Shown one piece after another: positions 13,001 through 30,950 of a stretch of DNA of 63,781 nucleotides; position 1 is the first letter of the stretch; every line of letters begins with the position of its first letter. The stretch comes from a virus. Taxonomy: Duplodnaviria; Caudoviricetes. Made by a program: the position numbers and the translations under genes. Below the pieces are notes generated by a model that saw only the letters and a program-made list of their open reading frames with translations, ran no database searches and was not told the origin of the DNA. The stretch lies in the IMG/VR virus record IMGVR_UViG_3300038309_000160, positions 1 through 63,781 of that record; one strand, written 5' to 3'.

Positions 13001-16000
13001 TAAAGAAGCTGCTATAAATGCTTTAGAGAAAGTACCTGGGATAGAAATACATTGGGCTCGTGAAAAAGGAGGACACTTTGTTGCAAGATTGAAAACTGAA
13101 ACAAATGCTGATACCTTGCCTGAATTTGAACTTCGACAAAATAATATTCCTGGTAAAGGATTAAAGCGGCAAGAAATTCAAAAAATGTTCCCTGGGCAAA
13201 ATGTTTTCTTTGGAGACAATAATACAATTTCTGTCCGTCTCAAAAATGGTAAAGGCATTACCTTTCAAACCATTCAAGATGCTGGCAAAGGTTTTATTGA
13301 GTATGCCATCCAGACTGGACAAATGTCAAAAAATGGTAAGATTCTTGGAGTTACAATAGGGAACAAGATTTTAATTGATTCTCAATTTGCCGACACCAAA
13401 ACAGGCTGGCATGAAAACTTACATGCTCTTGAAAACTTGGGCATGATCACTCCAGAAGATATTTCAGCCATTAATGAAGAATTTAATAAACTGAGAAAAT
13501 CAAATCAGTTGGGTTTTGCTCTGAGTACTCATACAGATCCTATTCAAAGGATGAAAGAGAACAGAGCCAACACCTTTGCGCAAATTATGGTAAATCGAGA
13601 ACAGTACCGCGATACGCCGCTAGGCAAAATAATTCAAAAAGTAAAAGATTTCTTTGACCAAATATATGTAATGGGCAAGAGATTTCTTACCTCCAACCAG
13701 GATTTTCAAACCAGCTCTAGTTTAGCTCGTGAAGTTGAATCAGGTAAATTTTATGATCGTCCTATTGATGGAATAACTGTTCAAGATGTTGTTGACACTA
13801 ATCCTTTTACAGTAGAAACTTTTCCTCAACTTACTTATCAAGAAAAAACATCTACTAAAACTCAAGTATTTAAAAAATGGTTTGGCAAATCAAAAACAAG
13901 GGATAAAGAAACTGATGAACCAATGATTTTTTATCATTATTCTCCTGAACCTATTACAGAATTTAAACACATGCCTGGGGCGAATACTGGACATGCTACT
14001 AGCGGTTTGGGCCATTTCTTCTTTGGTAAAAAAGATCCAGATGCTCATTATGGTCAATATGAAATAGCTGGATATCTAAAGATGGAAAAACCATATTTTA
14101 TGGGAACTGCTGAAGCTTCATCTTTTACTACGGTTAATGAAGCTATGGCTAGACAGCAAGAACTTCGTGATAAAGGTTATGATTCAATTATTATTGATAA
14201 TTCAGAAGTTGATGGAATGTATGTTGGTGGCCAGCCTTATTTTGTTATTTTTGATTCTAATCATGTTAAGTCGATTTATAATAGTGGTAATTGGGATTTA
14301 AATGAAAATAATATTTACTTGCAGGTATCCGAACCTTCAACTGAACAATCTATTCCTCAAGAAGAATATGATGACGTTTATAATCAAAAAGCAAATTTGT
14401 TAGAAAAAATTCAGCAATTACTTCGAATGAAATCGTCTGAAATTAAGTTAATGGCAGATAAAAGTTTAACCCCAATATCTACTAGGCTTAAAAAGATTGA
14501 TAATGAACTTGCAATGAAAATGCGTGAACTTGATTTTAAAATTGCCTTGAAGATTAACTCTGCCTTACAAGAAGCTTATCCTATAATGAAAACAAAGATG
14601 TCTTCTGAGGATAAGGTTGCCTGGGATTGGGCACGTAAAAACTCTGATGAAGGAAAGATAAATCAACTTGTTGAAAAGTATGGCTTTCAGGAAAATTATA
14701 ATAACCTACGAAATGTCTTAAATCAAATCAGACAAGATGCCATAGATGTTGGCTATGATGTAGGTTTTGTGGAAAATTACTGGCCTCGTATTATCAAAGA
14801 TCAAGAAGGCTTCTTACAGGCTACACAAGAAATTTCAAGACGGCCTGAATTTACAGAAGCTCTTAAAGAAAGAGCAGATAAACTAGGTATAAGTGTTGCA
14901 GATTTACGAGAACGTTTTCCTGATGTAACAGCTGATATTATTAGTAATGTTATTCTTGGGAGAAGTTCTGGAATTGGTGGGCCTGGCAATATTCAAGGAA
15001 GAGTTTTTGATAAAATTCCTGTAGAATATGCTAATTTTTATATGAATTCTGATGCTGCCTTGATGCAATATATTTATTCAATGACAAAAAAGATTGAAGC
15101 TCGTAAGTTCTTTGGCAAGGTACCAGAAAATATTAGTAAGATTAAACAAAAAATAAATTCAGCTCAAATAAGCTTACTTAATCTGGAACAACAAGAGGCT
15201 CTTTTACTCAGTGAAAGTTCTTTATCTGAAGAACAACAAAAATTGCTAGATTCTTATAGAGAACAAAAAACTACCTTGATGGATAATATCAGAACTTATA
15301 ATGGAAAACTAGAAGAGTATAAACTCCAGCGAGATTATACAGAAAATATTGGAGCTTTGATAAATGATTTAATGATCGCTGGTAAGCTGAATAAAAATGA
15401 TGAAAAGTCTTTGCGTGAAATATTAGATGCAAGATTCCATGAAAGAGGAACTACTGGGATTGTACATAACTATAAGAATTTTTCTTATATTGACGTTATG
15501 GGTAGTCCATTTTCAGCTATTACTCAGATTGGTGATCTTGCCTGGGCAATGTATGTTGGCAAGGCTTGGACACCAAAAGGATTTGCTGATACAACTAAAC
15601 ATTTAGTCCAAGCAATTTTTAAACAATCCAATATTACTAAGGAAGACTTGGGTATTGAACGAATGGCTCAAGAGTTTGCTGATTTTGATTCTTTTAGTAA
15701 TTTGGTCTCTAAAGTATTTAAGGTTGTTGGGCTTGAGAAAATGGATTCTATTGGTAAAGAACTCCTGATCAATAATGCTTTCAGTATGTACAAAAAACAA
15801 GTACAAACAGAAAATGGGCGGAGAGAATTACTTCAAAAGATTCGGCCGATTTTTGGAACACAGTCAAATCAGGTTATTAACGAGTTACTTGCTTTATCAG
15901 AAGATTCAACTGTAAAACCTTCTGATAATGTAAAGATGCTATTATACAGTCGTCTGTTAGATTTTCAACCTGTAGCATTATCTGAAATGCCAGAATATTA

Positions 16001-16763
16001 TCTTAAAGGAGGAAATTGGAGAATATTGTATATGCTTAAAACTTATACAATAAAACAACTTGATGTGTTTCGTAATGAGGTTTATAGAGAATTTAAGAAT
16101 GGTGATATAAATCAAAAGATTGGTGCAATGAAAAATATGGTCCAGCTTATGGGAGTTCTTGTTCTTGCTAATGCTGGAGCAGATGAGCTTAAAGATTTTC
16201 TTTTAGGAAAAGAAACAAAGCTTGAAGATAATGTAATTGAAAATCTATTAACTATAGGTGGAGCAAATCGGTATGTTCGTATGCAAGCACAAAGAGAAGG
16301 TATTGGCACAGCAGTAACTCAGTTAGTTCTTCCCCCATTTAAGTTTATAAACTCTTTAGGAAAAGATGTAAGTAAGGGAAACTTATTTGATTTGGAAGAA
16401 TCAAAAACTTTAGAATCTATTCCATTGATTGGAAAATTAGCTTATTGGCATGTTGGTAGAGGAAGTGAATATAGACCATCTGTTGAAGAACAAGATTTTT
16501 TGAAAATTGGAAGAAAGTTTAATAAATTTAAAAAGGATTTTGAAGAGTCAAACGATAAACGATTATTCCTACAGACGAATATAGATGAATTTAAACAAAT
16601 GAAAATTTATGAAGGTTTTAATTCTTCTACAAAAGAAATTACTGCCTTAATAAATAAGCTTAAAAAAATCGAGCAAACTACAAATGTAAGAAAAAGAATT
16701 GGACAATTAGAAGAACGTAAAAATCAGATAATGCAGAAATATTTTGAATTAACAAACAATTAA
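10014..16763 (+). CDS. Large polyvalent (injected) protein: Gly/Ala-rich N-terminus, GNAT, HExxH metallopeptidase-like and ART-PolyVal-like domains
   Basis: 2249 aa. GNAT motif A ILVEPEFQGKGFGQKLL; WHENLH...ENRA; FKKWFGKSK...MIFYHYS...YLKMEKP...GYDSIII...FVIFDSNHVKS. Confidence 0.75.
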   Translation: MKLESFGTAVNEQTEEELPFFGNITTNKESKNVLPEEDNLPFFGNITTNKTPVDEPVKKDQTDKDLAIQAAGGDFLSGLKGSFQSLQASLYGAAGLAGSATDAENIKDFGFEGYQRNISEASKYPTKTLRDVKEAEGFADTVGTAVDWVQGAAGKILPSMATAAIGSVVGAIAGSATAGPAGTVAGGVGGLAAKTILKKAINTATKKEISRQIKNGLIKEGGEAALEKSLKAQFTKQALQKLGGKIGMGAAVLPMEAGGNYGELLAEKGIDAPGTALFFGALATSLEYLGGNSRLIDNFIDTIGKGSGGAIKKSALQILRNMPEEALQEAGQEALSILNTVVNTDEKFLTPENIERMVEAGGVGAIGGGFGSVAGTFLNSSKADTGFNKDKTLDKVYKNITSYGSSYVSSTINRINEDISKANEILQKPEMLKQQADALSLSVEELTNNLQEQIANSTQLKERLSKFKLPEASKKVIDVKSLVQSIREKTNWDKVNRSSRSDAWFEGARVNEKARKGFIEALEAGGQDIQAHGMAKENTFIGGLENLLNLLKGGLNPNRGNGRLYTAPLVSKAGEGLIVDTASGSAYNEGPFMLLARPEQELVSDLSGVGAILVNETHADVINEIRDAVHAIRPDIIVETYGSAGSVVRQLKETTEVSKPKEYWQVWEDEIKQQRQASELKKQEDKKYQEAQKRIQENPDYQRRKALQEKWNAEEKTTAEKEAETIQMEVALQELQRTEGLTDEEIRDERANFYEKLWGTYPAKDAKRSAEVFTEQSDEEYRAIEKAVIQKHIENIMQETDRATRERAYDFLFGGVKDAAESFDIFNKTDLITRKGKPYQRREFLEGYLADRPDAANWDIAEVPGGFVGIRKIIKSTDVPVNKASTFTDEQQVESLENELTQKISDESGGGKLQEYSTKEGNPVGYTIVRPDNMFQAAAKRMYKEVDKNDKVLRLSEILVEPEFQGKGFGQKLLLEAFKAHPGVWLGNSQIGLGETKEAAINALEKVPGIEIHWAREKGGHFVARLKTETNADTLPEFELRQNNIPGKGLKRQEIQKMFPGQNVFFGDNNTISVRLKNGKGITFQTIQDAGKGFIEYAIQTGQMSKNGKILGVTIGNKILIDSQFADTKTGWHENLHALENLGMITPEDISAINEEFNKLRKSNQLGFALSTHTDPIQRMKENRANTFAQIMVNREQYRDTPLGKIIQKVKDFFDQIYVMGKRFLTSNQDFQTSSSLAREVESGKFYDRPIDGITVQDVVDTNPFTVETFPQLTYQEKTSTKTQVFKKWFGKSKTRDKETDEPMIFYHYSPEPITEFKHMPGANTGHATSGLGHFFFGKKDPDAHYGQYEIAGYLKMEKPYFMGTAEASSFTTVNEAMARQQELRDKGYDSIIIDNSEVDGMYVGGQPYFVIFDSNHVKSIYNSGNWDLNENNIYLQVSEPSTEQSIPQEEYDDVYNQKANLLEKIQQLLRMKSSEIKLMADKSLTPISTRLKKIDNELAMKMRELDFKIALKINSALQEAYPIMKTKMSSEDKVAWDWARKNSDEGKINQLVEKYGFQENYNNLRNVLNQIRQDAIDVGYDVGFVENYWPRIIKDQEGFLQATQEISRRPEFTEALKERADKLGISVADLRERFPDVTADIISNVILGRSSGIGGPGNIQGRVFDKIPVEYANFYMNSDAALMQYIYSMTKKIEARKFFGKVPENISKIKQKINSAQISLLNLEQQEALLLSESSLSEEQQKLLDSYREQKTTLMDNIRTYNGKLEEYKLQRDYTENIGALINDLMIAGKLNKNDEKSLREILDARFHERGTTGIVHNYKNFSYIDVMGSPFSAITQIGDLAWAMYVGKAWTPKGFADTTKHLVQAIFKQSNITKEDLGIERMAQEFADFDSFSNLVSKVFKVVGLEKMDSIGKELLINNAFSMYKKQVQTENGRRELLQKIRPIFGTQSNQVINELLALSEDSTVKPSDNVKMLLYSRLLDFQPVALSEMPEYYLKGGNWRILYMLKTYTIKQLDVFRNEVYREFKNGDINQKIGAMKNMVQLMGVLVLANAGADELKDFLLGKETKLEDNVIENLLTIGGANRYVRMQAQREGIGTAVTQLVLPPFKFINSLGKDVSKGNLFDLEESKTLESIPLIGKLAYWHVGRGSEYRPSVEEQDFLKIGRKFNKFKKDFEESNDKRLFLQTNIDEFKQMKIYEGFNSSTKEITALINKLKKIEQTTNVRKRIGQLEERKNQIMQKYFELTNN
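12671..12684. repeat. GTTCA-N4-TGAAC palindrome (inside the polyvalent gene)
   Basis: GTTCACAGATGAAC. Confidence 0.75.
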
Positions 16764-16768
16764 ATAAA

Positions 16769-17146
16769 ATGGAGATTATTATGAATCGCATTTATACTGA
16801 AACACTTGTAACTGATAATGTTGCTTGGGCAGGTCAAACCATTGCTGCTTCTGGATCTTTAACAAGTGATGCTTTTGATTTATGCAGATATACTCCAAAT
16901 GGATATTTTGGTATTCAGTTTAAATATACTGGATCAGGCACTATTGCATTAACTTATACAATGAGTAACAATGGAACAACGTTTGCTGCTCCTAATGATG
17001 GTGGATCTATTGCTACAGGATTATCTGCAGGAACACATCTTTATCAGTTTGAACCTGAACCTTTTAGGTATATTAAAATTATAGCTACTGAAACTGGTAC
17101 TTCTGATGAAGCAGTTGTAACTGAAGCAATTCTTTCTATTCAATAA
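16769..17146 (+). CDS. Small beta-rich virion protein
   Basis: 125 aa; TMSNNGTTF and PFRYIKI motifs common in tail accessory proteins. Start may be ATG 16781. Confidence 0.5.
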   Translation: MEIIMNRIYTETLVTDNVAWAGQTIAASGSLTSDAFDLCRYTPNGYFGIQFKYTGSGTIALTYTMSNNGTTFAAPNDGGSIATGLSAGTHLYQFEPEPFRYIKIIATETGTSDEAVVTEAILSIQ

Positions 17147-17157
17147 AGAGGCTTATT

Positions 17158-18387
17158 ATGAGCTTTAAGAATAAAGGTCCATGGGGAGGTAATGGCCCAT
17201 GGGAATCTAGTAGATCTCCTTGGGGAGTTTCTAGTCAAGTTTTTTCTGGCATTCCTGCAAGCGAATCCGAAGCTCTGGTTGCGTTTTACACGGCCACCGG
17301 TGGCGATTCCTGGACGGATAACACCGGATGGTCTGGCGGTGCGGCTGATGATGCCCTGGGGGTTACGGTTGTTGGCGGGCATGTAACCGCCATCGAGCTA
17401 CCCAACAACAACCTGGACGGGGACGCAGGAACCACGCTAGACCCGCTGGCGGCTGCTTTGGCGGTGCTTGACCTTGGGCAAAACCCCGCCCTTGATGATA
17501 TCGACGTGTCGGCCCTAACTGCCCTCGCAGATATTGACTTTGCCGGTTGCGATTTCGGCTCAAGTGTTGTGGCTGGCATCCTTGCCAACGTAGTCACGGC
17601 GGGGGTTAGCGCCGGAACGCTTGATATAGGAGGCAGCAATTCAAGCCCGTTGCCTGCCGGGGTTACTTCGCTACAAACGCTTGAGGATGACTCGTGGACG
17701 CTGACATATTCAACGGTCGTGCGGGAAAATACCGGCTCGTTCTACGTTGTCACCAAGGGCGGTGAAGCCAAGTTCAGGTCATCCGCAACCGATCTCTCAA
17801 GCCAGATCGGAAAGTATATCGTACTTAAAGACAGCGCCGGGAAGTATGCGGAGGCGTACATTGATGCGGCTGATAGTGCGGAGGCTTCCACATTGTTATT
17901 TTCGGATGACATGACAATAGACAATACAGGTAATTGGTATACAAATGATTGTACACTGACATTCGATACTGATCATTATGTTGTTACATATGTCAATCTG
18001 ACACAGAGTATTATTTTTCAGAATGCCTATAATCAGGAGGAAGGCTTTTTGTATAAGGCTGTTTTTGACGCACGAAACGGCGCGTCAATTATAAATACAG
18101 CGTTTTGGACGGACTATTTCAGCGGTAGATTTGCTCAAGTCGAAGGAATCACAAATACACTTTTCACAAGCATTTCATCCGATTCGACATCAAGATATCA
18201 ACTTCAATCTTTACTTAATTCAGGATCATATTTAGTTTATGGTGTGTGGTTGTATAAATACACCCATCTCGGCACCGACGCCGTAGTCCTAGAATCAACT
18301 CTCGGCGGTAATAACGGAACGTTTACAGATATTGAATCAGGTTTTAACCCGAACAATATAGTTCTTGTGGAGGTGTTTAACCCATGA
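17158..18387 (+). CDS. Putative receptor-binding/tail protein with LRR N-cap and short leucine-rich repeats
   Basis: ESEALVAFYTATGGDSW...GVTVVGGHVTAIELPNNNLDG...LAVLDLGQN...LTALADIDF. Confidence 0.6.
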   Translation: MSFKNKGPWGGNGPWESSRSPWGVSSQVFSGIPASESEALVAFYTATGGDSWTDNTGWSGGAADDALGVTVVGGHVTAIELPNNNLDGDAGTTLDPLAAALAVLDLGQNPALDDIDVSALTALADIDFAGCDFGSSVVAGILANVVTAGVSAGTLDIGGSNSSPLPAGVTSLQTLEDDSWTLTYSTVVRENTGSFYVVTKGGEAKFRSSATDLSSQIGKYIVLKDSAGKYAEAYIDAADSAEASTLLFSDDMTIDNTGNWYTNDCTLTFDTDHYVVTYVNLTQSIIFQNAYNQEEGFLYKAVFDARNGASIINTAFWTDYFSGRFAQVEGITNTLFTSISSDSTSRYQLQSLLNSGSYLVYGVWLYKYTHLGTDAVVLESTLGGNNGTFTDIESGFNPNNIVLVEVFNP

Positions 18388-18746
18388 AAAAAATAATTAT
18401 AGGAGCGATAGTTATGGCAATGTCAACAACGGCAATGGCAAAAGATAAAAATCAGATAACGGTTGAGGCTATCGCAACAAGCGAAAAACCAGCAGCGGTA
18501 CAGGCAAAGGTGGACGCAATCAAAGCCAGTGTTAAATCCAAGGTCGAGGCAAAGACGGAAAAGACGCAGACCGTCCGGGCCGGGGCTGGCGATATGGTTT
18601 TAATCCATGACGGCGCAAAAGTCATCATGGTTAAAGAGCTCGACCCGTTGGAAGAAATGAGCGTACCAGCTACCCGCACCGTGTTTGTTGGGACTGCCGG
18701 AAAGGTCAATGTTGAAATCAAAAAGTTGGGGTTGGCTGAAAAATGA
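18384..18746 (+). CDS. Hypothetical protein with signal peptide
   Basis: MKKIIIGAIVMAMSTTAMA signal; GGAGG RBS. Confidence 0.6.
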   Translation: MKKIIIGAIVMAMSTTAMAKDKNQITVEAIATSEKPAAVQAKVDAIKASVKSKVEAKTEKTQTVRAGAGDMVLIHDGAKVIMVKELDPLEEMSVPATRTVFVGTAGKVNVEIKKLGLAEK

Positions 18747-18868
18747 GAGACCGGGCCGTGCTTTACATACCAGTTTTCTTTTTTGCCTGGGCAGCGATGG
18801 TGATTTTTTTGGTGGGTTGGAGAATATACAATTATTTACGGGGGTATTATGGCACTAAGCGGACTTGA
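18743..18868 (+). CDS. Small single-TM protein (41 aa, below ORF-track cutoff)
   Basis: ATGA overlap with the upstream stop; MRDRAVLYIPVFFFAWAAMVIFLVGWRIY... Confidence 0.35.
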   Translation: MRDRAVLYIPVFFFAWAAMVIFLVGWRIYNYLRGYYGTKRT

Positions 18869-19208
18869 GCAGTTATTGATAGGTGCGGGACTGACGTTAA
18901 CTTCGGGAGCGGTATCGGGGGCCGTGGTTTGGATGAAGACGGCTAAAGACAAAGTTGGCTATGACGAATGTATACGCAACCGGGAAAAGATTGAAGAAGA
19001 GCATCGGATTAGGTGTCCTGAAAATCGACGGGTGCTTTCAGTCGATGACCATGAAAGCATTTGCTCCAAAAATCTGACGCCGATCCACCGGGAAATTAAA
19101 GAGACGAAAATGACGATTGCGCAGATACATGAAAAGATTGACCGGCTGTTGGTAGAACAATCAAAGCACGTCACCTTGAAAGACCTCGAACCATTATTGA
19201 GGCGATAA
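18849..19208 (+). CDS. Holin-like membrane protein
   Basis: One N-terminal TM helix plus coiled coil, directly upstream of the endolysin. Confidence 0.5.
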   Translation: MALSGLEQLLIGAGLTLTSGAVSGAVVWMKTAKDKVGYDECIRNREKIEEEHRIRCPENRRVLSVDDHESICSKNLTPIHREIKETKMTIAQIHEKIDRLLVEQSKHVTLKDLEPLLRR

Positions 19209-19209
19209 A

Positions 19210-19620
19210 ATGTATCATCTTGGAAAAGAAAGCAAGTCTCGGTTATCGACATGCTGCCCCGAACTGAAAAGTTTAGTTGAGCTTGCCATTGCTGTTTCGC
19301 CGATTGACTTTGTCGTTATTGAAGGCCATAGGGATTATGACCGGCAGGAGCAATTATTTTCTGAAGGGAAAACCAAGGTGCATTACCCGTATAGCAAACA
19401 TAATCCCATACCATCAGAAGCGGTCGACCTTGGGCCGTATGTCAATGGGAACTTGTCATGGGATTTTAACCATTGTTGCGTTCTTGCCGGGGCTGTTTTG
19501 GCGGTAGCAGAAATGACCGGGATAAAAATTAGATGGGGTGGCAATTGGGACATGGACGGAGAGCCTATTACTGACCAAGACTTCCAAGATTTAGTGCATT
19601 TTGAAAAAGTTGGCCCGTAA
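19210..19620 (+). CDS. Endolysin, peptidase M15 family (L-Ala-D-Glu peptidase-like)
   Basis: EGHRDYDRQEQLF, SKH...AVD, RWGGNW and DLVHFE motifs. Confidence 0.9.
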   Translation: MYHLGKESKSRLSTCCPELKSLVELAIAVSPIDFVVIEGHRDYDRQEQLFSEGKTKVHYPYSKHNPIPSEAVDLGPYVNGNLSWDFNHCCVLAGAVLAVAEMTGIKIRWGGNWDMDGEPITDQDFQDLVHFEKVGP

Positions 19621-19718
19621 ACCCGCAACCATCAAGGCTTGGCAGGCAGGCTTAACGAGAGGCCCTAGAATCGACGATCTAGTACAAGGTAAGGGTAACA
19701 TAGCCGGGAGATTTGAAC

Positions 19719-19982
19719 ATGAAACGCATTTTTCGTGATATCAAAGAATTTTCAACTGACGGTTGCACTATGTCGCCTGATTTCGATTTTCGTGACTGCT
19801 GCGTTCGGCACGATCTTGACTATTGGCGAGGTGATGTTACTAGGGCCGAGGCCGACAGACGATTAAGGCAGTGCATTAAAGAAAAAGGCTATGTTGTTTT
19901 GCCGTGGATATACTGGGCCGGGGTAAGGCTGTTCGGCGCCGGCCGGTTTAACAGAATTAAAAAACATAGGAGGTTTCCGTGA
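19719..19982 (+). CDS. Small Cys/His-Asp protein (prokaryotic phospholipase A2-like / DUF1353-like)
   Basis: DGCT...CCVRHDLDY...ADRRLRQC...YWAGVRLFG. Confidence 0.6.
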   Translation: MKRIFRDIKEFSTDGCTMSPDFDFRDCCVRHDLDYWRGDVTRAEADRRLRQCIKEKGYVVLPWIYWAGVRLFGAGRFNRIKKHRRFP

Positions 19983-20347
19983 AGAGACTAATTACCGTAT
20001 TGTTTTTGTTAGCGTGTCTGGGATGCGCTCATAACACGTCGTTTGTTGAGCATGCTTACGATACCATCGCAAGCGCGAACTACACAGTAAACGCCATGAT
20101 GGAGGTGGCAGGGCTGGAGCATTGCGCCGGGAATCTGACCGACGAACAGAAAAGCCGAATCATAGCGGCTTATGCTCAATACAAGCTGGCGGCTGACCTG
20201 GCCGATGAAGCCCTGGCTGTCTACGCTGCTACAGAAAAAGAAGATGACAAATTGGCATATGTCCGCGCTTTAGCGGAGCTGCTAGACAACGAGAAAATTA
20301 TCATTGATGTTCTTAACGCGTTTTTGGAGGTCGACCATGACAGATAA
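19979..20347 (+). CDS. Lipoprotein, possible spanin component
   Basis: MKRLITVLFLLACLGC lipobox; located in the lysis cluster. Confidence 0.6.
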   Translation: MKRLITVLFLLACLGCAHNTSFVEHAYDTIASANYTVNAMMEVAGLEHCAGNLTDEQKSRIIAAYAQYKLAADLADEALAVYAATEKEDDKLAYVRALAELLDNEKIIIDVLNAFLEVDHDR

Positions 20348-20519
20348 AGAAAAAGAGCTTGCAATTGACATCATCCGGCTAATTATTCAGGTAGGTGTTC
20401 CGGCGGCGATAAAGGTTATCCAGCAAATCCAGATTACCAACAACCCGACACCCGACGAAATCAGCGCCTTGAGCGACATGCTAAAGCAACCTGAAGATTA
20501 CTTCAATTGCGGAGGATAA
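20337..20519 (+). CDS. Hypothetical protein (60 aa; probable start ATG 20337)
   Basis: GGAGG RBS upstream of 20337. Confidence 0.5.
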   Translation: MTDKEKELAIDIIRLIIQVGVPAAIKVIQQIQITNNPTPDEISALSDMLKQPEDYFNCGG

Positions 20520-20521
20520 CC

Positions 20522-20674
20522 ATGAAAAATTTCATCAAGCAACACCCGAAAAAAATCTTGGCACTGGCTACAGCGGTCGTCGCTGGTGCTATTGGGTATT
20601 TCGTGCCGGAACTACGAAATGAAGCTTATGCCGCGGTCCGAGCCGCTTTGGTTGTGCTATGCGGGGTGTTTTAA
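20522..20674 (+). CDS. Small membrane protein, holin-like (50 aa, not in ORF track)
   Basis: GGAGG RBS; MKNFIKQHPKKILALATAVVAGAIGYFVPELRNEAYAAVRAALVVLCGVF with two hydrophobic segments. Confidence 0.55.
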   Translation: MKNFIKQHPKKILALATAVVAGAIGYFVPELRNEAYAAVRAALVVLCGVF

Positions 20675-20739
20675 ACGCGCCGTTAATATTATGATAATCC
20701 TGATCATATCGCCCTCCTCGTTTTGGTGTTATGGCCTTA

Positions 20740-20835
20740 GGCTAACGCCTGAATTTTGTGGCCGCCCGGCGACTGTGCCAGAACGCTTCCATTGGCCGGT
20801 CTGCCGGTGCGGTCCAGAGCAATGAATTGTTATAT
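20740..20835 (-). mobile_element. Integron attC site of cassette D (96 bp)
   Basis: On the minus strand: R'' ATATAAC, imperfect hairpin (CTGGACCGCACCGGCAGAC / GTCGCCGGGCGGCCA), R' GTTAGCC. The ORF stop lies inside R''. Confidence 0.8.
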
Positions 20836-21009
20836 TTCACCCTGCTTAATTACAAGCACCGGGCCAGCGCTGTTCCTTATTGTTATTCGCAACGCCCGCA
20901 AGTAATCCACTGTCGTTGCTGGTTCTTTAGGGCTCGACCATACCGCAAAAAATAACGGCATAGACTTTGGGAAATAAATCGGTAAAAATTTTTTAAATAT
21001 CCACTTCAT
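20830..21009 (-). CDS. Cassette D ORF, 59-aa hypothetical protein
   Basis: AAGGAGG RBS; MKWIFKKFLP...KQGEI; fills the space between GTTATATTTCACC and its complement GGTGAAATATAAC. Confidence 0.65.
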   Translation of the reverse strand: MKWIFKKFLPIYFPKSMPLFFAVWSSPKEPATTVDYLRALRITIRNSAGPVLVIKQGEI

Positions 21010-21034
21010 AGCCAGCCTCCTTAAAAGGTGAAAT

Positions 21035-21066
21035 ATAACAGTGTAATAAGTGGAAAATTACTCCAT
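21035..21066 (-). repeat. attI-like / degenerate attC element, copy 1
   Basis: ATGGAGTAATTTTCCACTTATTACACTGTTAT; 31/32 identical to 23220-23251; ends at the G/TT that begins cassette D. Confidence 0.7.
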
Positions 21067-21092
21067 ATGTATTTTATCTTGTTCTATTTCCA

Positions 21093-21551
21093 TTATTTTC
21101 CCCGCGGTAACTGCCTGACCGCATCACCGATGGTGCCCTGGAAATACCAGTCTGCGTTTAGGTCGTTCTTGATTTCCTCAACGGTCGGAATGCCACACCA
21201 ATAGTTTGTAGTCACATATTCAACGTACTGATCCCTTGGCCAGCCATCCCTTCCCAGGCGGTCGTGTAAATCAATTAAATGCCATTGCTGGTCATCGTTA
21301 CACCATACCTCATTCCAGCAATGAGCCGCGAAATTGCCAGTTACACCAGCGTAACCGCAACACAATTTGCTTTTGATACTGGCCCGGTGGTACAGGATTT
21401 GTCCTTTTCGCGCCTTGACGCAGCAGTCGCCTTTTGTCGCCCACTCTATCTGCTTGACGTGGGTTTTTTCAGGGATGTAGACCTTGGTGGTTAATATGCT
21501 ACATCCGGTTGCTATTGCGATAATACATGTGATAATAATTGTTCTGATCAT
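21093..21551 (-). CDS. Lipoprotein with transglutaminase-like C-H-D pattern
   Basis: IATGC lipobox; GDCC...AHCWNEV...WHLID. Confidence 0.55.
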   Translation of the reverse strand: MIRTIIITCIIAIATGCSILTTKVYIPEKTHVKQIEWATKGDCCVKARKGQILYHRASIKSKLCCGYAGVTGNFAAHCWNEVWCNDDQQWHLIDLHDRLGRDGWPRDQYVEYVTTNYWCGIPTVEEIKNDLNADWYFQGTIGDAVRQLPRGK

Positions 21552-21654
21552 GATACTCTCCTGTTTAAGATGTTGTGGTCTGCCTCGACCCCTGGTGGTG
21601 CAGGGCCGGGTGGTTGGCTTATATAATGCACTTTCTTTTCTTTGATCTGCCTTT

Positions 21655-22113
21655 TTACTCCCGGCTTTTGTAATATTCAGCCCAGTTCGCGATTTCCATC
21701 AACACCTCCGTCCAGTGCGGTTTCCATTCCGTGTCTTCCGGCTTTTCTGGCCCCGGCTCGTAGTCATGGCGGCAGGTGGCGCACTTGTCGGGCTGCCTTT
21801 GATATCCGCATTCATTCAGGCAAAAGCCGTTAACTCCAGACAAAAGCCCGCCGCATTCAGGGCATGATGTTTTATCCTGTTCTGCCACCCACTCCTCACG
21901 ATCCGGGGCAGATGGGGAGCGGCGGTAAGGCGGAGCAGATTCAGGACCAGTTTTATGGTTTGTGAATACCATATATTCATTGCACGGATGCCATGTACCG
22001 CAATGTCGGCATTGATACTCCCACCACTCCCACGCTTTCGGATTAACCTCTAAGTCCTTTTCATACTCGCACCGGGCGCAGTACCCGGTGACGCCGTGCT
22101 TGCAGTTAGTCAT
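21655..22113 (-). CDS. Multi-CxxC (Zn-ribbon) hypothetical protein (probable start ATG 22113)
   Basis: GGAGG RBS; CARC, CRHC, CPEC and CATC motifs. Confidence 0.6.
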   Translation of the reverse strand: MTNCKHGVTGYCARCEYEKDLEVNPKAWEWWEYQCRHCGTWHPCNEYMVFTNHKTGPESAPPYRRSPSAPDREEWVAEQDKTSCPECGGLLSGVNGFCLNECGYQRQPDKCATCRHDYEPGPEKPEDTEWKPHWTEVLMEIANWAEYYKSRE

Positions 22114-22271
22114 TTGGCCTCCTTTTTCGCCTTGCGGCGTCTGGCTCTCGCCATCTGCTTTTTGGCCCATTTCGTGAATCCCGAATGGGCGTGTGGGCGA
22201 TGATATGGGCAGCGACATTCTTCTCTCCACCATAACCATCGGCCTTCCGCTTTGTTTACTGGCTTTGCCAT
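22110..22271 (-). CDS. Small basic protein (53 aa, not in ORF track)
   Basis: GGAGGG RBS; MAKPVNKAEGRWLWW...ARARRRKAKKEAK; ATGA overlap with the next gene. Confidence 0.5.
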   Translation of the reverse strand: MAKPVNKAEGRWLWWREECRCPYHRPHAHSGFTKWAKKQMARARRRKAKKEAK

Positions 22272-22362
22272 TCATCCCTCCTTCGGCGGGGCGGGGAGCG
22301 GTTGCCAGTGGGTGACACGCTCATCGTCATAGAAGATACATCCGTCAAGCTCAAACCATTCT
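22272..22362 (-). pseudogene. 5'-truncated DUF551-like gene remnant
   Basis: Reads WFELDGCIFYDDERVTHWQPLPAPPKEG*, the typical DUF551 C-terminus, with no start codon; abuts a half attC. Confidence 0.65.
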
Positions 22363-22363
22363 T

Positions 22364-22401
22364 TCGCGTCTTTTTGCGTCAGGTTGATTTGATGGTTATA
22401 A
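22364..22401 (-). mobile_element. Truncated attC of cassette C (left arm only)
   Basis: TTATAAC-CATCA-AATCAACCTGACGCAAAAAGACGCG on the minus strand; the right arm and R' are missing. Confidence 0.6.
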
Positions 22402-22575
22402 TTCTCTTACAAGTACATCATGAACCTTATTACACTTCACGCATTTTCTTTTTTGACGCAATTCAACATATGGGACCTCTCGCCCTTGTGATGCTTTCGG
22501 TGCGAGTCTTCCTAGAATTTGGATTCCACGCTCTTCGTATTGTTCCCATTTTGACCATTTATGGAAGATGCACAT
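22396..22575 (-). CDS. Cassette C ORF, 59-aa Cys/His protein (DUF1660-like pattern)
   Basis: AGGAG RBS; MCIFHKWSKW...RKCVKCNKV; bounded by GTTATAATT and AATTATAAC. Confidence 0.7.
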   Translation of the reverse strand: MCIFHKWSKWEQYEERGIQILGRLAPKASQGREVPYVELRQKRKCVKCNKVHDVLVREL

Positions 22576-22588
22576 TTTTGTCTCCTAA

Positions 22589-22717
22589 TTATAACGTTAA
22601 AAATTGTGGGGCTGGCAGGGTAGCGGCCAACTTCGATTACACCTACTCTCAACCGCTCCCATGCCCACTTGCTTAAAAGCAAGACCCCGCCAGTCCCACA
22701 CCAACGACTTGTTATAA
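22589..22717 (-). mobile_element. Integron attC site of cassette B (129 bp)
   Basis: TTATAAC-AAGTC-GTTGGTGTGGGACTGGCGGGGT ... ACCCTGCCAGCCCCACAATTTTTAAC-GTTATAA, with about 3 unpaired bases on one arm. Confidence 0.85.
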
Positions 22718-22936
22718 ATCATATTCCTGGTTAAATCGAAAATTATACCATTCCAACAGGATTGCCCTTATTACCTGGTGGTGTTCTTCTGCCTCGATTT
22801 TAACTTTATCCATAAACCAGTTTTCGATTAGCCCCATTGGAACTACATGAACAGATTCGGTAACCGGGTCTGTAAAAATCATCCACTGGCCATCTTCTTT
22901 TTTTGCATACTCTGTTATATTAATTACGTCAGCCAT
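22712..22936 (-). CDS. Cassette B ORF, 74-aa hypothetical protein
   Basis: GAGG RBS; MADVINITEY...; stop TAA inside R''; bounded by GTTATAAATC and GATTTATAAC. Confidence 0.7.
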   Translation of the reverse strand: MADVINITEYAKKEDGQWMIFTDPVTESVHVVPMGLIENWFMDKVKIEAEEHHQVIRAILLEWYNFRFNQEYDL

Positions 22937-22952
22937 AATCACCTCTTTTGAT

Positions 22953-23013
22953 TTATAACGAAAAGTTCACCCGCGCCGCGAAGCGGGGTCGGATGTGAAA
23001 CGCCTTGTTATCT
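22953..23013 (-). mobile_element. Integron attC site of cassette A (61 bp)
   Basis: AGATAAC-AAGGC-GTTTCACATCCGACCCCGCTTCGCGGCGCGGGTGAAC-TTTTC-GTTATAA. Confidence 0.85.
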
Positions 23014-23015
23014 GT

Positions 23016-23198
23016 TTACTGATCACAAGGCCAAACAAAAGCCTCGGCTCGACAAGTAAAAACCGCCCAAGCGTGTTTGACGCGATCCATGAACGACATG
23101 CACTCCCGTCGATAGTTTAGCGGACGGGCAGGAACCCATTTGCCATCGATACAGGTTTGAGGTAGATTTTTGTCTTGAAGATCAATCAATTTCCACAT
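23016..23198 (-). CDS. Cassette A ORF, 60-aa hypothetical protein
   Basis: GGAG RBS; GKWVPARP...AWAVFTCRAEAFVWP; bounded by GTTATCTGT and ACAGATAAC. Confidence 0.7.
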   Translation of the reverse strand: MWKLIDLQDKNLPQTCIDGKWVPARPLNYRRECMSFMDRVKHAWAVFTCRAEAFVWPCDQ

Positions 23199-23219
23199 TT
23201 TCTTTCTCCAATATTACAG

Positions 23220-23251
23220 ATAACAGTGTAATAAGTGGAAAATTACGCCAT
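23220..23251 (-). repeat. attI-like / degenerate attC element, copy 2
   Basis: ATGGCGTAATTTTCCACTTATTACACTGTTAT; ends at the G/TT that begins cassette A. Confidence 0.7.
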
Positions 23252-23758
23252 CACTTTTTTGACCAGCTCCAGCAGCCGGTCTATAGCGTCTAAAATGTCC
23301 TGTTTTGTGTAGCTATTTTCCGTTGTGTTTTCAATATCTTCCGGCGTTTCCGGCTCTGAGATGTCGCTTGGAGTGTCGTTTTCTGTCGAAGCTGCTATCG
23401 GCTTGAAGTGGGCGACCAGGTATGAGAGCGGAGATTTGATTTTGGTATTTCCAATTGTTTTGAACAGAGTAATTACGACATCGCCTGTAGTATTAAAAGG
23501 GTATTCCATCTCTAGAAAATCATCCGGCGAATTGCTGGACCTATACCACGCTTCCCAATGTCTAAACACATACCCTTCTGCCGGGGTTGCATTGACCGTG
23601 TATGACATGGCATCATGATGTAAAAACGGATAACCCGGACTTGGATTGTACCATTCTCCGAAATCGTCACTCTTTATATGTCCTGCTCCAAACGGCTCAA
23701 CTGCCGTTGCAAGTCCCCACTGGCCTCATGTAAATTTCGGTAGTTTAATGTCTGCCAT
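23243..23758 (-). pseudogene. InlB B-repeat-like protein with an in-frame TGA at codon 11 (the ORF track reports only 23243-23608)
   Basis: MADIKLPKFT*GQWGLATAVEPFGAGHI...VNATPAEGYVFRHW...AHFKP all lie in one frame. Confidence 0.45.
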
Positions 23759-23781
23759 TTTTATTCTTTCTTTAAAAAATT

Positions 23782-23824
23782 ATTTTGCATGGGATTATCT
23801 TATCTCAATAATCCCATGCAAAAT
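23782..23824. terminator. Perfect 17-bp stem hairpin, probable terminator ending the replication operon
   Basis: ATTTTGCATGGGATTAT-N9-ATAATCCCATGCAAAAT, with T/A runs on both sides. Confidence 0.7.
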
Positions 23825-23828
23825 TTTA

Positions 23829-24143
23829 TTATTCAATTCCCATATCTCTTAACAAAGCATCAAGTAAAAATGTATAATTTCTCAAATCACCAATTTTCTC
23901 ATTCCAAACCTTTAAACTATGAGAATAAGGATCTTTAACCATATCACAAATTGATGTAAAATGCTTGGTCATCATTCCAACAAGAGCTTCAGTAGGTTCA
24001 ATACACTGAACTTTTCCTGCACGATGAAATTGAGTCAAACGATCATCACCACACATAGCATATTCTTTTGCTTTGTTAATTAAAGTACGTTTACTTCTAA
24101 GGACTGATTTTTCAAATTCTAATTCAAATTCTGAATGATTCAT
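23829..24143 (-). CDS. All-alpha nucleotide-modification-associated / MazG-like protein
   Basis: KAKEYA..DRLTQF...MMTKH...EKIGDLRNYTFLL pattern. Confidence 0.45.
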   Translation of the reverse strand: MNHSEFELEFEKSVLRSKRTLINKAKEYAMCGDDRLTQFHRAGKVQCIEPTEALVGMMTKHFTSICDMVKDPYSHSLKVWNEKIGDLRNYTFLLDALLRDMGIE

Positions 24144-24166
24144 TTCTCTCTCCTTTGGTTAATAAA

Positions 24167-24418
24167 TTAGTTTAGTGTAATAACATTTGATTCTTCTTTA
24201 ACTTCTTCTGGTTTTCCAGGAGGACTTCCACATTTAATACAAACTATTTTCGGCATTTGGACAAGTTGATCTTGGCCTGTTGGATTTATAAGTCCAGAAT
24301 AAATACCAAGCTCAAAAATCTGTATGAAAGTTGTACTTGGACATTCAGGATTTGAACATTTTAATAATTTTAAATCTTCTCGTCTTACTTGGAAACCTCT
24401 TTGTATTGTTTCTCCCAT
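24167..24418 (-). CDS. Small Zn-ribbon protein
   Basis: CSNPEC...CIKCG. Confidence 0.55.
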   Translation of the reverse strand: MGETIQRGFQVRREDLKLLKCSNPECPSTTFIQIFELGIYSGLINPTGQDQLVQMPKIVCIKCGSPPGKPEEVKEESNVITLN

Positions 24419-24432
24419 TTTTAATCTCCTTT

Positions 24433-25041
24433 TTAATAAATAATATTATCAAAAACAACAGGTAATTTACTTTTTAATTCTTCTAATAATGGAATCATTA
24501 AAGCTCTCATTTGAGGATGAGCAGACTTATCACAACGAAGATTAAAAATATGTCGCCATTCCCGAATATTTGCTTTTATAATAATTTCTGTTTTCAAAGA
24601 ATTTGGTAACACTTCCCTGGCTTGTTGAGGTTGCCAGCCTGAAGAAATTAAATCTTGATAAAATTCTTCAGCAAAACTCATAGCACAGGACCAGATATTT
24701 TTTTGATGTTCTGTACTTTCATCCCACCAGACTGGTTGTATAAAAAATATATCTTTTCCACCATAATTTACATACCTAGTGCTTTCTTGAGCAAAACTAC
24801 ATATGCGATGTCTTACAAGTTCATGAGTAACTCCTCGATTAGTAATAAACTTTACTATGATATCACCAAATTCAATCATAGCATGATGTTTTTTATCAAT
24901 TAAAAGTTTTACAAACTTACTTGCTGAATCATTAGTAATTTTATCTTCTGACTTGTAACAAGTTCTACCAATAGATTCTAGGGTTTTTAATAAATCATTT
25001 GGGATACTCAAAATTTCGTAGGTCTGTTTCATTATATTCAT
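24433..25041 (-). CDS. thyX: Flavin-dependent thymidylate synthase
   Basis: ELVRHRICSFAQESTRY (RHRxxSxxxxSxR), AREVLPN, NIREWRH and AHPQMR motifs. Confidence 0.95.
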   Translation of the reverse strand: MNIMKQTYEILSIPNDLLKTLESIGRTCYKSEDKITNDSASKFVKLLIDKKHHAMIEFGDIIVKFITNRGVTHELVRHRICSFAQESTRYVNYGGKDIFFIQPVWWDESTEHQKNIWSCAMSFAEEFYQDLISSGWQPQQAREVLPNSLKTEIIIKANIREWRHIFNLRCDKSAHPQMRALMIPLLEELKSKLPVVFDNIIY

Positions 25042-27190: not shown

Positions 27191-30100
27191 TTATCGTAAT
27201 TCACCTAACTTAGCAATAGCTTTATCAATATTTTCTTGTGTAAAACTATCAATAGAAGCTGTTTTACCTGCCCATTGCTGACCAATTTTTGCATCAAGTC
27301 CAATGGTAAAACTTTTTCCTTTGTAGGTGAAAGTATAAGTTAAGTGATCTTTAATTATAAGAAGAATCTGGAGTAAGTTGGGAATTTGATCTTTGTGGAA
27401 TTGAAAAAGAATTGAGTCATGAACAGTTGTTAATAGCCTAATATCAAAGCCATCTTTACCAAGCCTGGGATCATTAGAAATTTTAATACTTCCACGATTT
27501 AAAAGTTCTGCCACAGTTGATTGTGGCTTATAACTGTAGGCATTGCGAAATAAAGATGGTCCCATATCTCCAAGAAAACGTCGAGGAGAATTAAATAAAT
27601 TGTATAAAATTCTTGATTTTTGTACTTCTTCTTCAATTGATTGATGCCACCGCTTTAAGCCTGGAAAACGATCTTGATAATTTTGAAGAAGTTTTTTACA
27701 TTCTGCTTGGGACATGAAAATTTCTTCTGTAGCCAGATTATCAGAAAAGGTTTGTGGTCCCATTGCATAGTTGCTTGCATGAACAACCTTTTTACCCATA
27801 TAGCGCATTGTACTTTTTTGATCTTTTTTAGTTTTTGATTCTTTAATAACTTCTTCAATAGGAACATTGAATATTTTACTTGCATTGAAAGAGTGGACAT
27901 CAATACCGGAGGTAAAAGAATCGATCATGTTAGCATCTTGGGTAAGATAAGCAACTACATGAGCTTCAGCTTTTGCAAGATCACATTCACATAAAATCCA
28001 ACCAGGATCAGATATAAGAAATTGCTTGAAAAGATACGGCTGATTTTGGAGGTTTGTATTACCAGTAATTTGAATATTTTTATTATTTCGTACAAGAAAA
28101 AAAGATGTTGGAGTTTGTAAACAATAAACCATTCCAGTATAATCAATTATTTTCCAATGTTGTTTATTTATTCTTGCATGAGTTCTTGGTTTGATATTAA
28201 TTGAGTATAAAGGTTTATTTTTTCCTTGACCATAGCCATTGTTATTATTATAATTGATCAATATTGTACAACTTTTACCAACTAAATGTGCTAGAGTACT
28301 TATAATTTCTACATTCTGTTCATTTGTAGTATAATAAATATAACTTTGTCCTCTACGATGAGCATCCCAGTATTTAATTTCATCTATAAAAGCTTCTTTA
28401 GCTTCTAAAGTTAAATCATACATCCAAGAACCAAGAGTTTTTCCATCAAAAAGAAATTTTTTAATTAAATTTGACCAATTAGATGATATACAAAAACGTC
28501 TATAACCAGAAGTAGCTTTCTGTTCAGTATAATCAATATTTCCAAGAGCCATTAATTTTAAAAATCTATTAATTTTATTTTTCTTTTTAAAAGAAACTCG
28601 AATATTTGATTCTTCAATAGTACAATCTGCTTGAACCATTGCAATTAAACGTAATAGTAATGGAGGTAATTCTTTTGTCCCATTAAAAGAACTTCCTAAA
28701 GGTAATAAACGCTCACTTAAACAAGATGTTTCATAAGCAGAATTAACACTAAAAGTTTTATGCCCAGGATGGTAAGATGGAATTCTGTGATCTGCAGTAA
28801 ATATTCCTTCAGTTTGAGTAGATTTTAATTGCATCATCTTAGAAAAATAAAATTCTTTATGTAATTTAGGAACACACCAAGATAATGAATCTGTTTTATT
28901 ATCCCATTGCATTGCTTGCATACCTTCTTGAAAATATTGTAACTGAATCCAACCATTTGGTGTTAATACTTCTGCTGAAGGTAATAAACATCCAGTTCCA
29001 AAAAAAGTCCTTTCAGTTGCTATCCGTCCAGATACTGTTCCAGAAATTTTATGACTACATCGAAGACGATTGTCATCATCTACTGGAACGTCAAAATAAG
29101 TTGATATCAATTTATTATATTTACGAATCTTAATTATCATTCGTGCTTCAATAGAGCCTTTAATATTCTTTTTTGCAATTCTATGTAGTGCTACAGTATC
29201 ACAGGATGCATTGCCTGTTGTACGATTTATATAAGGTTTAATCATACAAATACCATAAAAATAAGCAATCATCTGTTTTGATGAGGATGGATTTAATTCT
29301 TTACCAGCTATTTTATTCAGACCATGTTGAAGTGCTTTTACCCAACGTTCATATTTTTTTCGTGTTTCAATGATTCCTTTTTTATTAGTTAATATACCAT
29401 TAAACTCCATTTCCATCAATGGCTTATGAAGATCCATCATATAAGCCATAACATCAGTTGAATCGAATTCTTCTAATTCTTTGATTAGTGCCTCAGCAAT
29501 TGGAAGAAGATAAGCAGAATCTTTGGCATTATAAACCCAATATTGTGGCCAGTCTTTAATAACTTTAAGATGGGATTGTTTGCCTTCGTCTTTGTAATAA
29601 GGATAAAAAGTGTAGGCAGAGGTGAGATAATCAAGACCTTTTGGAAGCTCAGTATAACATCTGTGTTGAGCAAGCATAGTGTCAAAGAAGAAATTATCTG
29701 TTTTAATGTTCATCGTACGAAGAATAAACATTAAATCAAACATTCCATTCTGGCATATCTTCTTGATATTTGAATCATTTAAAATTTCAGCAACACCTTT
29801 CCATATTTTTACCTCCTCTTCAGGTGACCATATATTACCTTGGTTATTGAGAAAAGGTATTGACATGGAAACAATTTTTTCATCATAATAAATTGCAAGA
29901 GAAAAGCAAGTAATAAATTCTGGAGTACATTCAATATCAAAAGCTACATGCTCTTTTGTTTTAATTAAGGCATAAAATCTTAAAATTTCATCCAGAGTAG
30001 GATTTATCTTAATATCGGTAATGTCTTTTAATACATCTGGATTCTCAATTACTTTTAATGCCTTATTGAAATCAGCAATCATGGTATAGAAATGAATTGG

Positions 30101-30652: not shown

Positions 30653-30665
30653 TATTCTTAATCCT

Positions 30666-30950
30666 TTATAATCTATCCTTTTGTATGCTTTCTGGATTAG
30701 GTGCTTTAATTTCTCTGTTACAATCAAGACAAAGATAAGATTTTACCCGAATAACATCAGCGCCAAGAATATTAACACTACTATAAAATGGTTCTTTTTC
30801 ATATCCTTCAGGCCAAGTTTTTCTGGCAAAAGAAAATTCAAGTGGAACAAGATTCTTATGTAAACAACAAAAAGATTTATATTTTGATGAATTTTCCATT
30901 ATTTGTCCTGATTTAAATTTATCCATTTTAATCCTCTTCATCCTCTTCAA
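30666..30950 (-). CDS. Small Cys-containing hypothetical protein
   Basis: CLH...CLDC; co-oriented with the operon. Confidence 0.5.
   Translation of the reverse strand: MKRMKRIKMDKFKSGQIMENSSKYKSFCCLHKNLVPLEFSFARKTWPEGYEKEPFYSSVNILGADVIRVKSYLCLDCNREIKAPNPESIQKDRL

Follow-up and report, generated by a model that had tools for sequence, protein, structure and literature searches.

Integron gene cassettes in phages were first reported in 2023, as attC clusters of unknown origin (PMC9892861). In that report, Qi et al. (2023) described CALINs in virulent phages, where the phage-borne attC sites are substrates of IntI1 and where two attC sites are the minimum for a CALIN (PMC9892861). The attI site that receives cassettes has also been described, where the simple site is the essential region and the direct repeats act as enhancers (PMC3146285; PMC9892861). 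A further related system is the truncated-attI-type cassette that was described by Gonzales Machuca et al. (2026) in integrons of classes 1 and 2 and whose truncated attI sites are functional with IntI1 (PMC12901181). Of attI1 or attI2, the truncated sites presented there keep 8-12 nt and in one case 238 nt, and they belong to complete integrons of clinical bacteria (PMC12901181).

The locus analysed in this work, from a phage of marine sediment, combines phage attC clusters and truncated attI sites in a phage with an uncharacterised attI. The window, which is the whole stretch of DNA that was analysed, is one whole IMG/VR record of 63,781 bp, which has direct terminal repeats and a completeness rating of 100%. 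The gene set is that of a lytic-type tailed phage with terminase, capsid, SU10-type adaptor, and a 2249-aa virion protein, and the same phage also encodes an endolysin, a family A DNA polymerase, a primase, a ligase, and ThyX. The structural and lysis genes on the plus strand end at 20674 and the minus-strand genes descend from 25041. The cassette that is the main subject here, cassette D, is located at their meeting point. The features of the locus are as follows.

20657..20745, minus strand: flank after cassette D, consisting of TTAGCC..., an RBS, and a 16-aa stub ORF
20740..20835, minus strand: attC of cassette D, 96 nt, with R'' ATATAAC at 20835..20829 and R' GTTAGCC at 20746..20740
20746..21038, minus strand: cassette D, 293 nt, starting with the first T past the crossover G and ending with the G of R'
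20830..21009, minus strand: 59-aa cargo ORF of cassette D, RBS-led and pointing at the attC
21016..21022, minus strand: RBS AAGGAGG, 6 nt before the ATG
21027..21040, minus strand: 5' arm of the inverted repeat, made up of the start of cassette D and the remnant of its own R' (GTTATATTTCACC)
21035..21066, minus strand: truncated attI copy 2, with crossover G at 21039 and TT at 21038-21037
21093..22275, minus strand: two ORFs between the arrays, of 206 aa and of 152 aa, the latter with a weak transglutaminase-core match
22395..22594, minus strand: cassette C, with a 59-aa ORF at 22575..22396 and an R'' that complements the start over 9 bp
22595..22958, minus strand: cassette B, with a 76-aa ORF at 22942..22712 and a 129-nt attC at 22717..22589
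22959..23223, minus strand: cassette A, with a 60-aa ORF at 23198..23016 and an attC at 23013..22953
23220..23251, minus strand: truncated attI copy 1, with crossover G at 23224, 2.2 kb from copy 2

The locus is similar to the CALINs of virulent phages in that a lytic-type phage lacking an integron integrase carries cassettes with attC sites, all on the same strand (PMC9892861). However, the cassettes here start at two truncated attI sites that match the attI of an environmental integron family and at which other contigs appear to have differing occupants, whereas no attI is described for the virulent-phage CALINs in the text of that report, supplementary boundary tables aside (PMC9892861). 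The locus is also similar to the truncated-attI-type cassettes, where the truncated attI lies behind an ORF and before the next cassette and the bases are kept up to the crossover (PMC12901181). The phage sites differ from those described there (PMC12901181) in that they keep 20-32 nt, the attI from which they derive is uncharacterised, and the phage has no integrase. Chromosomal integrons in sediment MAGs, of the type found in L042, L054, L055, and L056, have the same 20-nt attI end, the same G|TT junction, and the same attC layout. Unlike the phage, they have an integrase and a full attI with three direct boxes. No description of a phage-borne attI fragment of this kind was found in the literature, supplementary tables aside. 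A preprint on an attG route reportedly deals with single attC sites and with cassette insertion outside att sites. The lone cassette with no integrase nearby is a likeness to that route, but the insertion point in the phage is an attI simple site and not a generic genomic site. What this locus presents is the junction itself, namely a bacterial attI simple site in an integrase-less phage with a cassette at the exact crossover, and other contigs of the same phage appear to have other occupants at the junctions.

The view that the unit at 21038..20746 represents a genuine integron-type cassette, situated at a truncated attI of an integrase-less phage, is largely supported, mostly by evidence beyond the preliminary description. 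The limits of cassette D were set by the attI junction, by the complement between the start and R'', and by the alignment to the attC model that is described below. The preliminary description of this region had reported a 13-bp perfect complement, and it was found within a 14-nt inverted repeat consisting of TGTTATATTTCACC at 20828-20841 and GGTGAAATATAACA at 21027-21040, where the arms are 100% complementary and 185 nt apart. The start of cassette D complements its own R'' over 13 bp, which is expected for a cassette that passed through a circular form. Among 2308 GTT sites on both strands of the window, only the site of cassette D pairs over at least 13 bp with an AAC-ending site 100-900 nt downstream, where its pair was counted once per strand. 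The 59-aa ORF that had been described with its stop in R'' is also present, where the stop codon TAA (20832..20830) sits within ATATAAC. Within the attC, R'' and a 5-nt spacer precede an L'' in which two bases are extrahelical, and then come a long GC stem, L', a 6-nt spacer, and R'. Both R'' ATATAAC and R' GTTAGCC are one position off the consensus (RYYYAAC and GTTRRRY, respectively). Past GTTAGCC, the sequence continues with GAGGAGGG and then with an ATG at 20707 that opens the 16-codon stub ORF MIRIIIILTARLKHPA* (20707..20657). The RBS and stub ORF are as had been described, with the stub reaching into the 3' end of a convergent plus-strand ORF (20507..20674). The stub ORF is probably what remains of an older cassette, namely its truncated start. 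Cassette D exhibits several features of an integron gene cassette, namely a compact one-ORF unit pointing to its attC, R'' and R' boxes with spacers and L'' and L' boxes with extrahelical bases, and a start that complements its own R''.

The hairpin was examined by folding. The 96-nt sequence from ATATAAC to GTTAGCC, which had been noticed earlier as an attC-shaped hairpin, gave a better fold than each of 200 shuffled versions, with z of -3.5 and -3.75 for the two strands. The preliminary description had expected both R''/R' and L''/L' to pair. In the minimum-energy fold of the integrated form, L'' and L' are paired and the long stem is formed, while R'' and R' are unpaired and only TAAC and GTTA are complementary. 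This is because R' in the integrated form is a hybrid with the next unit, to which the bases after its G belong. In the circular form, R'' would pair instead with the first bases of its own cassette. When the circular form was folded with R'' and the first 6 or 12 bases of the cassette, both strands exhibit one hairpin in which the R box is fully paired, with a 5-nt unpaired stretch on one side and bulges in the L box.

The search of the whole window against Rfam gave no match. Rfam has no attC model, so a model was built from bacterial arrays. The attC candidates were chosen from the arrays by R''/R' complementarity and folding, and five of the same geometry seeded the first model (R1). R1 recovered 24 sites in 8 bacterial loci, and those 24 sites, with no phage sequence, are the training set of the second model (R2), which was used to search the whole window on both strands with the filters off. 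R2, trained on bacterial integron sites, detects attC sites of the phage. The attC of cassette A (22953-23013) scored 31.8 bits with an E value of 9.6e-6 and the attC of cassette B (22589-22717) scored 20.4 bits with an E value of 0.011. The attC of cassette D (20741-20835) is the third-best match and is aligned over the full length, with 14.1 bits and an E value of 0.48 that is not significant alone. Each of the top three matches sits on the minus strand immediately downstream of an ORF, and the remaining matches have at most 10.6 bits. In the control, which consists of 97 kb of six unrelated phage loci, the best match is one unique site of 14.2 bits (in the near-identical L025 and L029). The score of the cassette D site by itself does not discriminate. 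The score is also below those of all 24 training sites (at least 19.3 bits, scored under R1). The alignment to R2 exhibits the canonical layout with a 7-nt R'', a 5-nt spacer, a 3+1+6+1 L'', and a matching L'. The standard pairs make up 12 of the 16 model pairs, with two non-standard pairs in the R box, where R' is hybrid, and two among the six inner L-box pairs.

Cassettes A, B, and C tile exactly, where each starts at the GTT that ends the preceding attC. The start of cassette A, GTTATCTGT, pairs with its own R'' over 9 bp and its ORF matches phrog_21988, while the start and R'' of cassette B are complementary over 11 bp. No attC is recognisable beyond R'' in cassette C, where R2 gave no match at an E value of 10 or below. 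The window has nine distinct pairings of a GTT site with an AAC-ending site of at least 9 bp, and four of them are the consecutive cassettes at 20.8-23.2 kb. If the GTT of the attI fragment is the crossover, the DNA that follows is expected to be a cassette with an R''-complementary start, and this is what was found. With the attC sites of A and B significant and no intI present, the locus has what defines a CALIN, where the attC of cassette D lies 1.75 kb from that of cassette B. Both attI copies also exhibit the order of the truncated-attI-type cassette, in which an ORF comes first, then a truncated attI reaching as far as the crossover, and then the next cassette. The 5' limits of such units were not found in the window.

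The existence of a first array about 1.3 kb away, which had been reported before, is in agreement with the last recognisable R'' of the A-C array, which ends at 22395, and with the repeat of copy 2, which ends at 21066. The claim that cassette D forms a second and separate array is a matter of reading, and it may be part of one composite array. The 206-aa and 152-aa ORFs in between are followed by no attC but by truncated attI copy 2. The two truncated attI sites may then be the 3' sites of truncated-attI-type cassettes, to judge from the examples presented in PMC12901181. Among the bacterial arrays compared, no homologues of the phage cassette ORFs were found. The 152-aa protein has no relatives in viral or metagenome contigs and the 24-nt flank of R' has no match in metagenome contigs, in searches that possibly did not include records near the window.

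The self-search of the window revealed that copies 1 and 2 match at 31 of 32 nt, with 27 nt identical. Both copies contain a 20-nt core, TTTCCACTTATTACACTGTT, which in copy 2 is located at 21056..21037 directly upstream of cassette D (TTTCCACTTATTACACTG|TT). The core occurs twice in the window and was matched in 0 of 100 shuffles. A degenerate second box, AATAATGGAAAT, is located about 30 nt further upstream of copy 2, near 21085-21096, where box-like 12-mers are not enriched in the window (21 against 17.5 expected). The stop codon of the 121-aa ORF (23608..23243) falls inside copy 1, and the 152-aa ORF stops 32 nt ahead of the 27-nt repeat of copy 2. The last 20-32 nt of an attI are all that the phage has kept, where neither the full site with accessory repeats nor an intI beside it, as in a complete integron, is found.

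Exact matches to the core were found in 3 further viral contigs and, on the bacterial side, in 21 MAG stretches. The MAGs are labelled as sediment bacteria from Syntrophales, Syntrophaceae, Desulfocapsa and Desulfocapsaceae, Nitrospirota, Manganitrophaceae, and others. In the bacteria, the core closes a conserved element of about 150 nt at its 3' end, and this element has three direct AATAAGTGGAA boxes and an inverted one. Its conservation ends right after GTT and a gene starts within the next 10-40 nt. An integron-integrase homologue is located divergently just upstream in 12 of the 21 stretches; there is none in 5, and 4 have less than 200 nt of upstream sequence. Four of the integrase ORFs scored 416-438 bits against NCBIfam TIGR02249, where the cut-off is 265. 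Arrays of small same-strand ORFs are located downstream of the element. The divergent integrase, the downstream arrays, and the conservation together identify the element as the attI of an integron family. The 20-nt core is equivalent to the attI simple site, in which an integrase-binding box and the GTT core lie five bases apart.

Two other explanations of the 27-nt repeat were rejected. As a sigma-70 or phage-polymerase promoter it has the wrong spacing, and the attI identity explains the repeat. The neighbouring integrase and arrays rule against a transposon or IS end.

The attI belongs to an uncharacterised integron family that is spread over several phyla of sediment bacteria.

The phage itself has no integrase. 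The search of all six frames of the complete genome with PF00589 and TIGR02249 for an integron integrase or other tyrosine recombinase gave no match at an E value of 1 or below, where the same search gave matches in 14 of 14 control genomes. A tyrosine recombinase is also absent from the Pfam scans of 76 ORFs. The blastn search against cultured-phage records gave nothing for 19000-23000 or for the attI fragment. The G+C content is 33-34% in the phage backbone and 47% in the stretch 17158-23608, with jumps at about 17.1 kb and 23.7-24.4 kb, and from this difference it follows that module exchange has happened in that stretch. The high-G+C stretch carries phage genes, of which the endolysin is syntenic with that of the relative L015. 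The bacterial integron loci have 38-47% G+C compared with the 33-34% of the phage backbone.

The region was also identified in Logan contigs of four public runs, of which three come from one marine-sediment study (one of them perhaps the source sample) and one comes from the study of a landfill. In run X2, a contig of 13.5 kb spans 16500-21610 with zero differences and carries the 152-aa ORF, the attI fragment, and cassette D in one piece with the lysis genes. A contig of run X1 spans 21036-24500 with one difference. The X1 contigs break at 21036-21065 and at 20760-20789. A further X1 contig has the same 30-mer (21036-21065), including the bases that are specific to copy 2, and has other sequence left of 21036. 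The loose end of this contig, in reverse complement, has the junction GTTAGGT, which is a perfect GTTRRRY, and then a purine-rich run that resembles an RBS. The depths of X1, which are a crude measure, rise from 97.8-100.6 left of the junction to 153.4 on its right, and the step fits a second strain. Past the crossover of copy 1, the contigs diverge after 11 nt in X1 and after 8 nt in X4. An X4 contig, from the other study, retains 20586-20748 with 9 differences and then departs upstream of GCGTTAGCC, which means that the flank after R' is retained while the preceding unit differs. For the alternative junctions, the evidence consists only of 30-letter loose ends of contigs. The lack of a listed X4 piece over 20749-21196 reflects a lack of cover. 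Other sequence at both boundaries of cassette D is present in these contigs and may reflect the variation that had been expected at this junction among relatives. An empty site, which had been expected too, was not seen; neither it nor a circle junction nor a joint that skips 20746-21038 is among the contigs of the four runs.

The core was further compared among the three other viral records that have it, which are phage-like. L039 carries RecE/RecT-type genes and an HNH endonuclease, L041 carries an endolysin and a tail chaperone, and L040 carries an N4-type virion RNA polymerase. None of the three has an integron integrase above the cut-off. Behind the core of L039 and of L041 lies a cassette, and its start and its R'' are complementary over 8 and 7 bp, respectively. 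R2 gave matches of 36.9, 27.5, and 25.9 bits in L039 and of 19.7 bits in L041, on the correct strand, and a weak match on the opposite strand in L040. The five phage copies, which belong to four unrelated lineages, all keep a simple site of at least 20 nt. This retention, as read from the sequences of the copies, suggests selection for the site.

We consider it on balance probable that a host integrase acting in trans inserted the cassette at the truncated attI. Since the complete phage genome has no tyrosine recombinase, an integron integrase of the host acting in trans would be the most likely agent. In the proposed mechanism, the integron integrase of the infected host would act in trans on phage DNA, where the folded bottom strand of the attC of a circular cassette would recombine with the phage-borne attI simple site at G|TT. 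The same process at copy 1, 2.2 kb away, would have given rise to the three cassettes there. The cargo would be transcribed with the upstream minus-strand genes and translated from its own RBS. We infer that the recombination took place on phage DNA, that the integrase was supplied by the host, and that the attI site of the phage is still active. Points against this explanation are the non-significant attC score and the deviating boxes of cassette D, the lack of an empty site or circle junction among the contigs, the lack of homologues of the cassette ORFs in the bacterial arrays compared, and the difference in G+C between the backbone and the integron loci.

A broader reading is put forward tentatively. 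Virulent phages of several unrelated lineages would keep an integrase-less attI as a docking platform, borrow the integrase of any host, and sample or swap cassettes of the bacterial pool, where the adjacent position would turn over within one sediment population. The lineages concerned are the present phage, the RecET-bearing phage, the N4-like phage, and a fourth. Were the site active, phages would make use of host integrases and be more than passive carriers of cassettes, and a direct route of gene flow would exist between bacterial cassette pools and phage genomes. The attC of cassette D and the attI fragment of 20-32 nt form a simple testable pair of substrates, for which the cognate integrase is identifiable in the MAG loci.

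The alternative that survives best, although we regard it as rather unlikely, is that a genuine cassette was imported ready-made. A piece of a bacterial array would have entered the phage by illegitimate or homologous recombination, with no integrase acting on phage DNA. The strain differences would then be homologous exchange at conserved attI and attC sites, and 23608..20740 would be one composite array. The upstream limit of attI homology varies among the five phage copies, as is expected of non-specific breakpoints, and in L039, as in the window, the end of an ORF falls within the truncated attI or shortly ahead of it. The 47% G+C of 17158-23608 against the backbone is also in favour of an import, as are the X1 depths, which suggest as a weak hint that the strain without cassette D differs across the lysis genes too. 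However, at three junctions the contigs begin to diverge at G|TT itself or a few bases from it. The variable position is located beside each truncated attI, which is where new cassettes enter in integrons. The simple site of at least 20 nt that is kept by all five copies in four unrelated lineages also argues against an import.

It is very improbable that the unit is not a cassette at all, in which case the inverted repeat would have arisen by chance and the GC hairpin would be a terminator or an RNA-stability element between convergent genes. The position of the hairpin in a convergent intergenic region is in line with a terminator, and the model score of its attC does not, by itself, rise above background. 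By estimate, it is only moderately unlikely that 64 kb of AT-rich DNA contains a 14-bp inverted repeat within 300 nt. However, the repeat begins exactly at the GTT of an attI fragment that is common to bacterial integrons. There are three adjoining cassettes with the same signature, two of which have a significant attC, and other contigs differ at both boundaries of cassette D. The main stem at 20760-20822 has no T-run after it and was not called by the terminator scan, and terminator-like sites are not enriched in the window (6 against 4.0 expected).

An assembly chimera of phage and bacterial integron, to which the G+C jumps and the X1 contig breaks could point, is hardly credible, as the record has terminal repeats and the rating of a complete genome, the high-G+C stretch has phage genes and endolysin synteny with L015, and the X2 and X1 contigs (16500-21610 and 21036-24500) span the region. 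A miniature inverted-repeat transposable element was also rejected; the 14-mer was found only at the two arms and at one site with 2 mismatches, which 13 of 100 shuffles equal, and no flanking target duplication is visible. T4-type promoter-stem-loop shuffling cassettes were considered and set aside.

The 59-aa cargo protein was characterised as well. The word-based search identified only the protein itself and ESM Atlas gave no usable match. No relatives of the cargo protein or of its homologues P0004 and P0019 were found in viral contigs, in a search that possibly did not include records near the window. The 22 genomes or records behind the attI loci have no convincing homologue of the cargo family, where the best E value is 0.003. 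The AlphaFold2 model (pLDDT 89.7) exhibits a helix-strand-strand-helix-strand-strand fold, for which Foldseek gave nothing in the PDB at an E value of 0.001 or below, and the best Z scores of VIA-align, 4.2 (Pur-alpha) and 3.5 (PC4 homologue), are below the meaningful level. The HMMER scan of 1.84 billion representatives identified 18 proteins at an E value of 1e-3 or below, of which 17 are others, mostly of 59-78 aa, and the relatives in this protein search are all metagenome proteins. The motifs LPIY, AIWSAP, LRITIR, and VIKKG are conserved in the alignment of the family, which indicates that the 59-aa ORF is a real gene.

The bacterial MAG contigs L042-L062, which carry the exact 20-nt attI core, are one uncharacterised integron family. 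In the attI of this family, three direct AATAAGTGGAA boxes are accompanied by one inverted box, and the 20 nt at its end are invariant. The MAGs that carry it are labelled as several phyla. No integrase homologue was found upstream in L045, L047, L049, L057, and L058, all of which have ample upstream sequence, and the integrase homologue of L048 and L061 is reduced to a 34-aa remnant. The boxes upstream of the core are absent in at least L057.

The same core is also found in another phage contig, L039, where an HNH endonuclease ORF is followed by a truncated attI. Among the ORFs of the cassette-array region downstream of this attI are matches to a PAPS-reductase-like PHROG family and to a Mom-like DNA-modification PHROG family. 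The features of L039 and of the window are as follows.

L039:10485-12800, truncated attI and downstream cassette-array region
Window 10014-16763, 2249-aa virion protein
Window 17158-23608, stretch with a 409-aa tail-fibre-like ORF, lysis genes, and cassettes
Window 23782-23824, perfect hairpin of 17 bp with a 9-nt loop, between minus-strand ORFs of 104 aa and 121 aa
Window 27191-30727, family A DNA polymerase

The 59-aa protein of cassette D (window 20830-21009) and its metagenome homologues P0002-P0018 are a small-protein family without a name. The predicted fold of the cassette protein is confident, yet it has no meaningful match in the PDB.

A 21-nt inverted repeat (arms at 22294-22314 and 22640-22660, 86% complementary) encloses cassette C, as one arm lies inside the attC of cassette B and the other just past the point where the attC of cassette C has decayed. 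A rearranged attC may have left this repeat behind as a relic.

The 6.5-kb stretch that contains the cassettes has a G+C content of 47%, compared with 33-34% in the backbone, and appears to be an exchanged module for host range and lysis. The contigs of the public sequencing runs X1 and X3 diverge at window 17103-17136, where the depth of the X1 contig falls from ~203 to ~123. The hairpin sits at the upper edge of the stretch.

Two kinds of domain match the virion protein below threshold, GNAT acetyltransferase domains and an ADP-ribosyltransferase of polyvalent proteins. Over its C-terminal 1250 residues, the virion protein shares 45-49% identity with a protein of the relative L015. The DNA polymerase is a fusion protein that also carries a uracil-DNA-glycosylase-superfamily domain at its N terminus, as well as a 3'-5' exonuclease domain.
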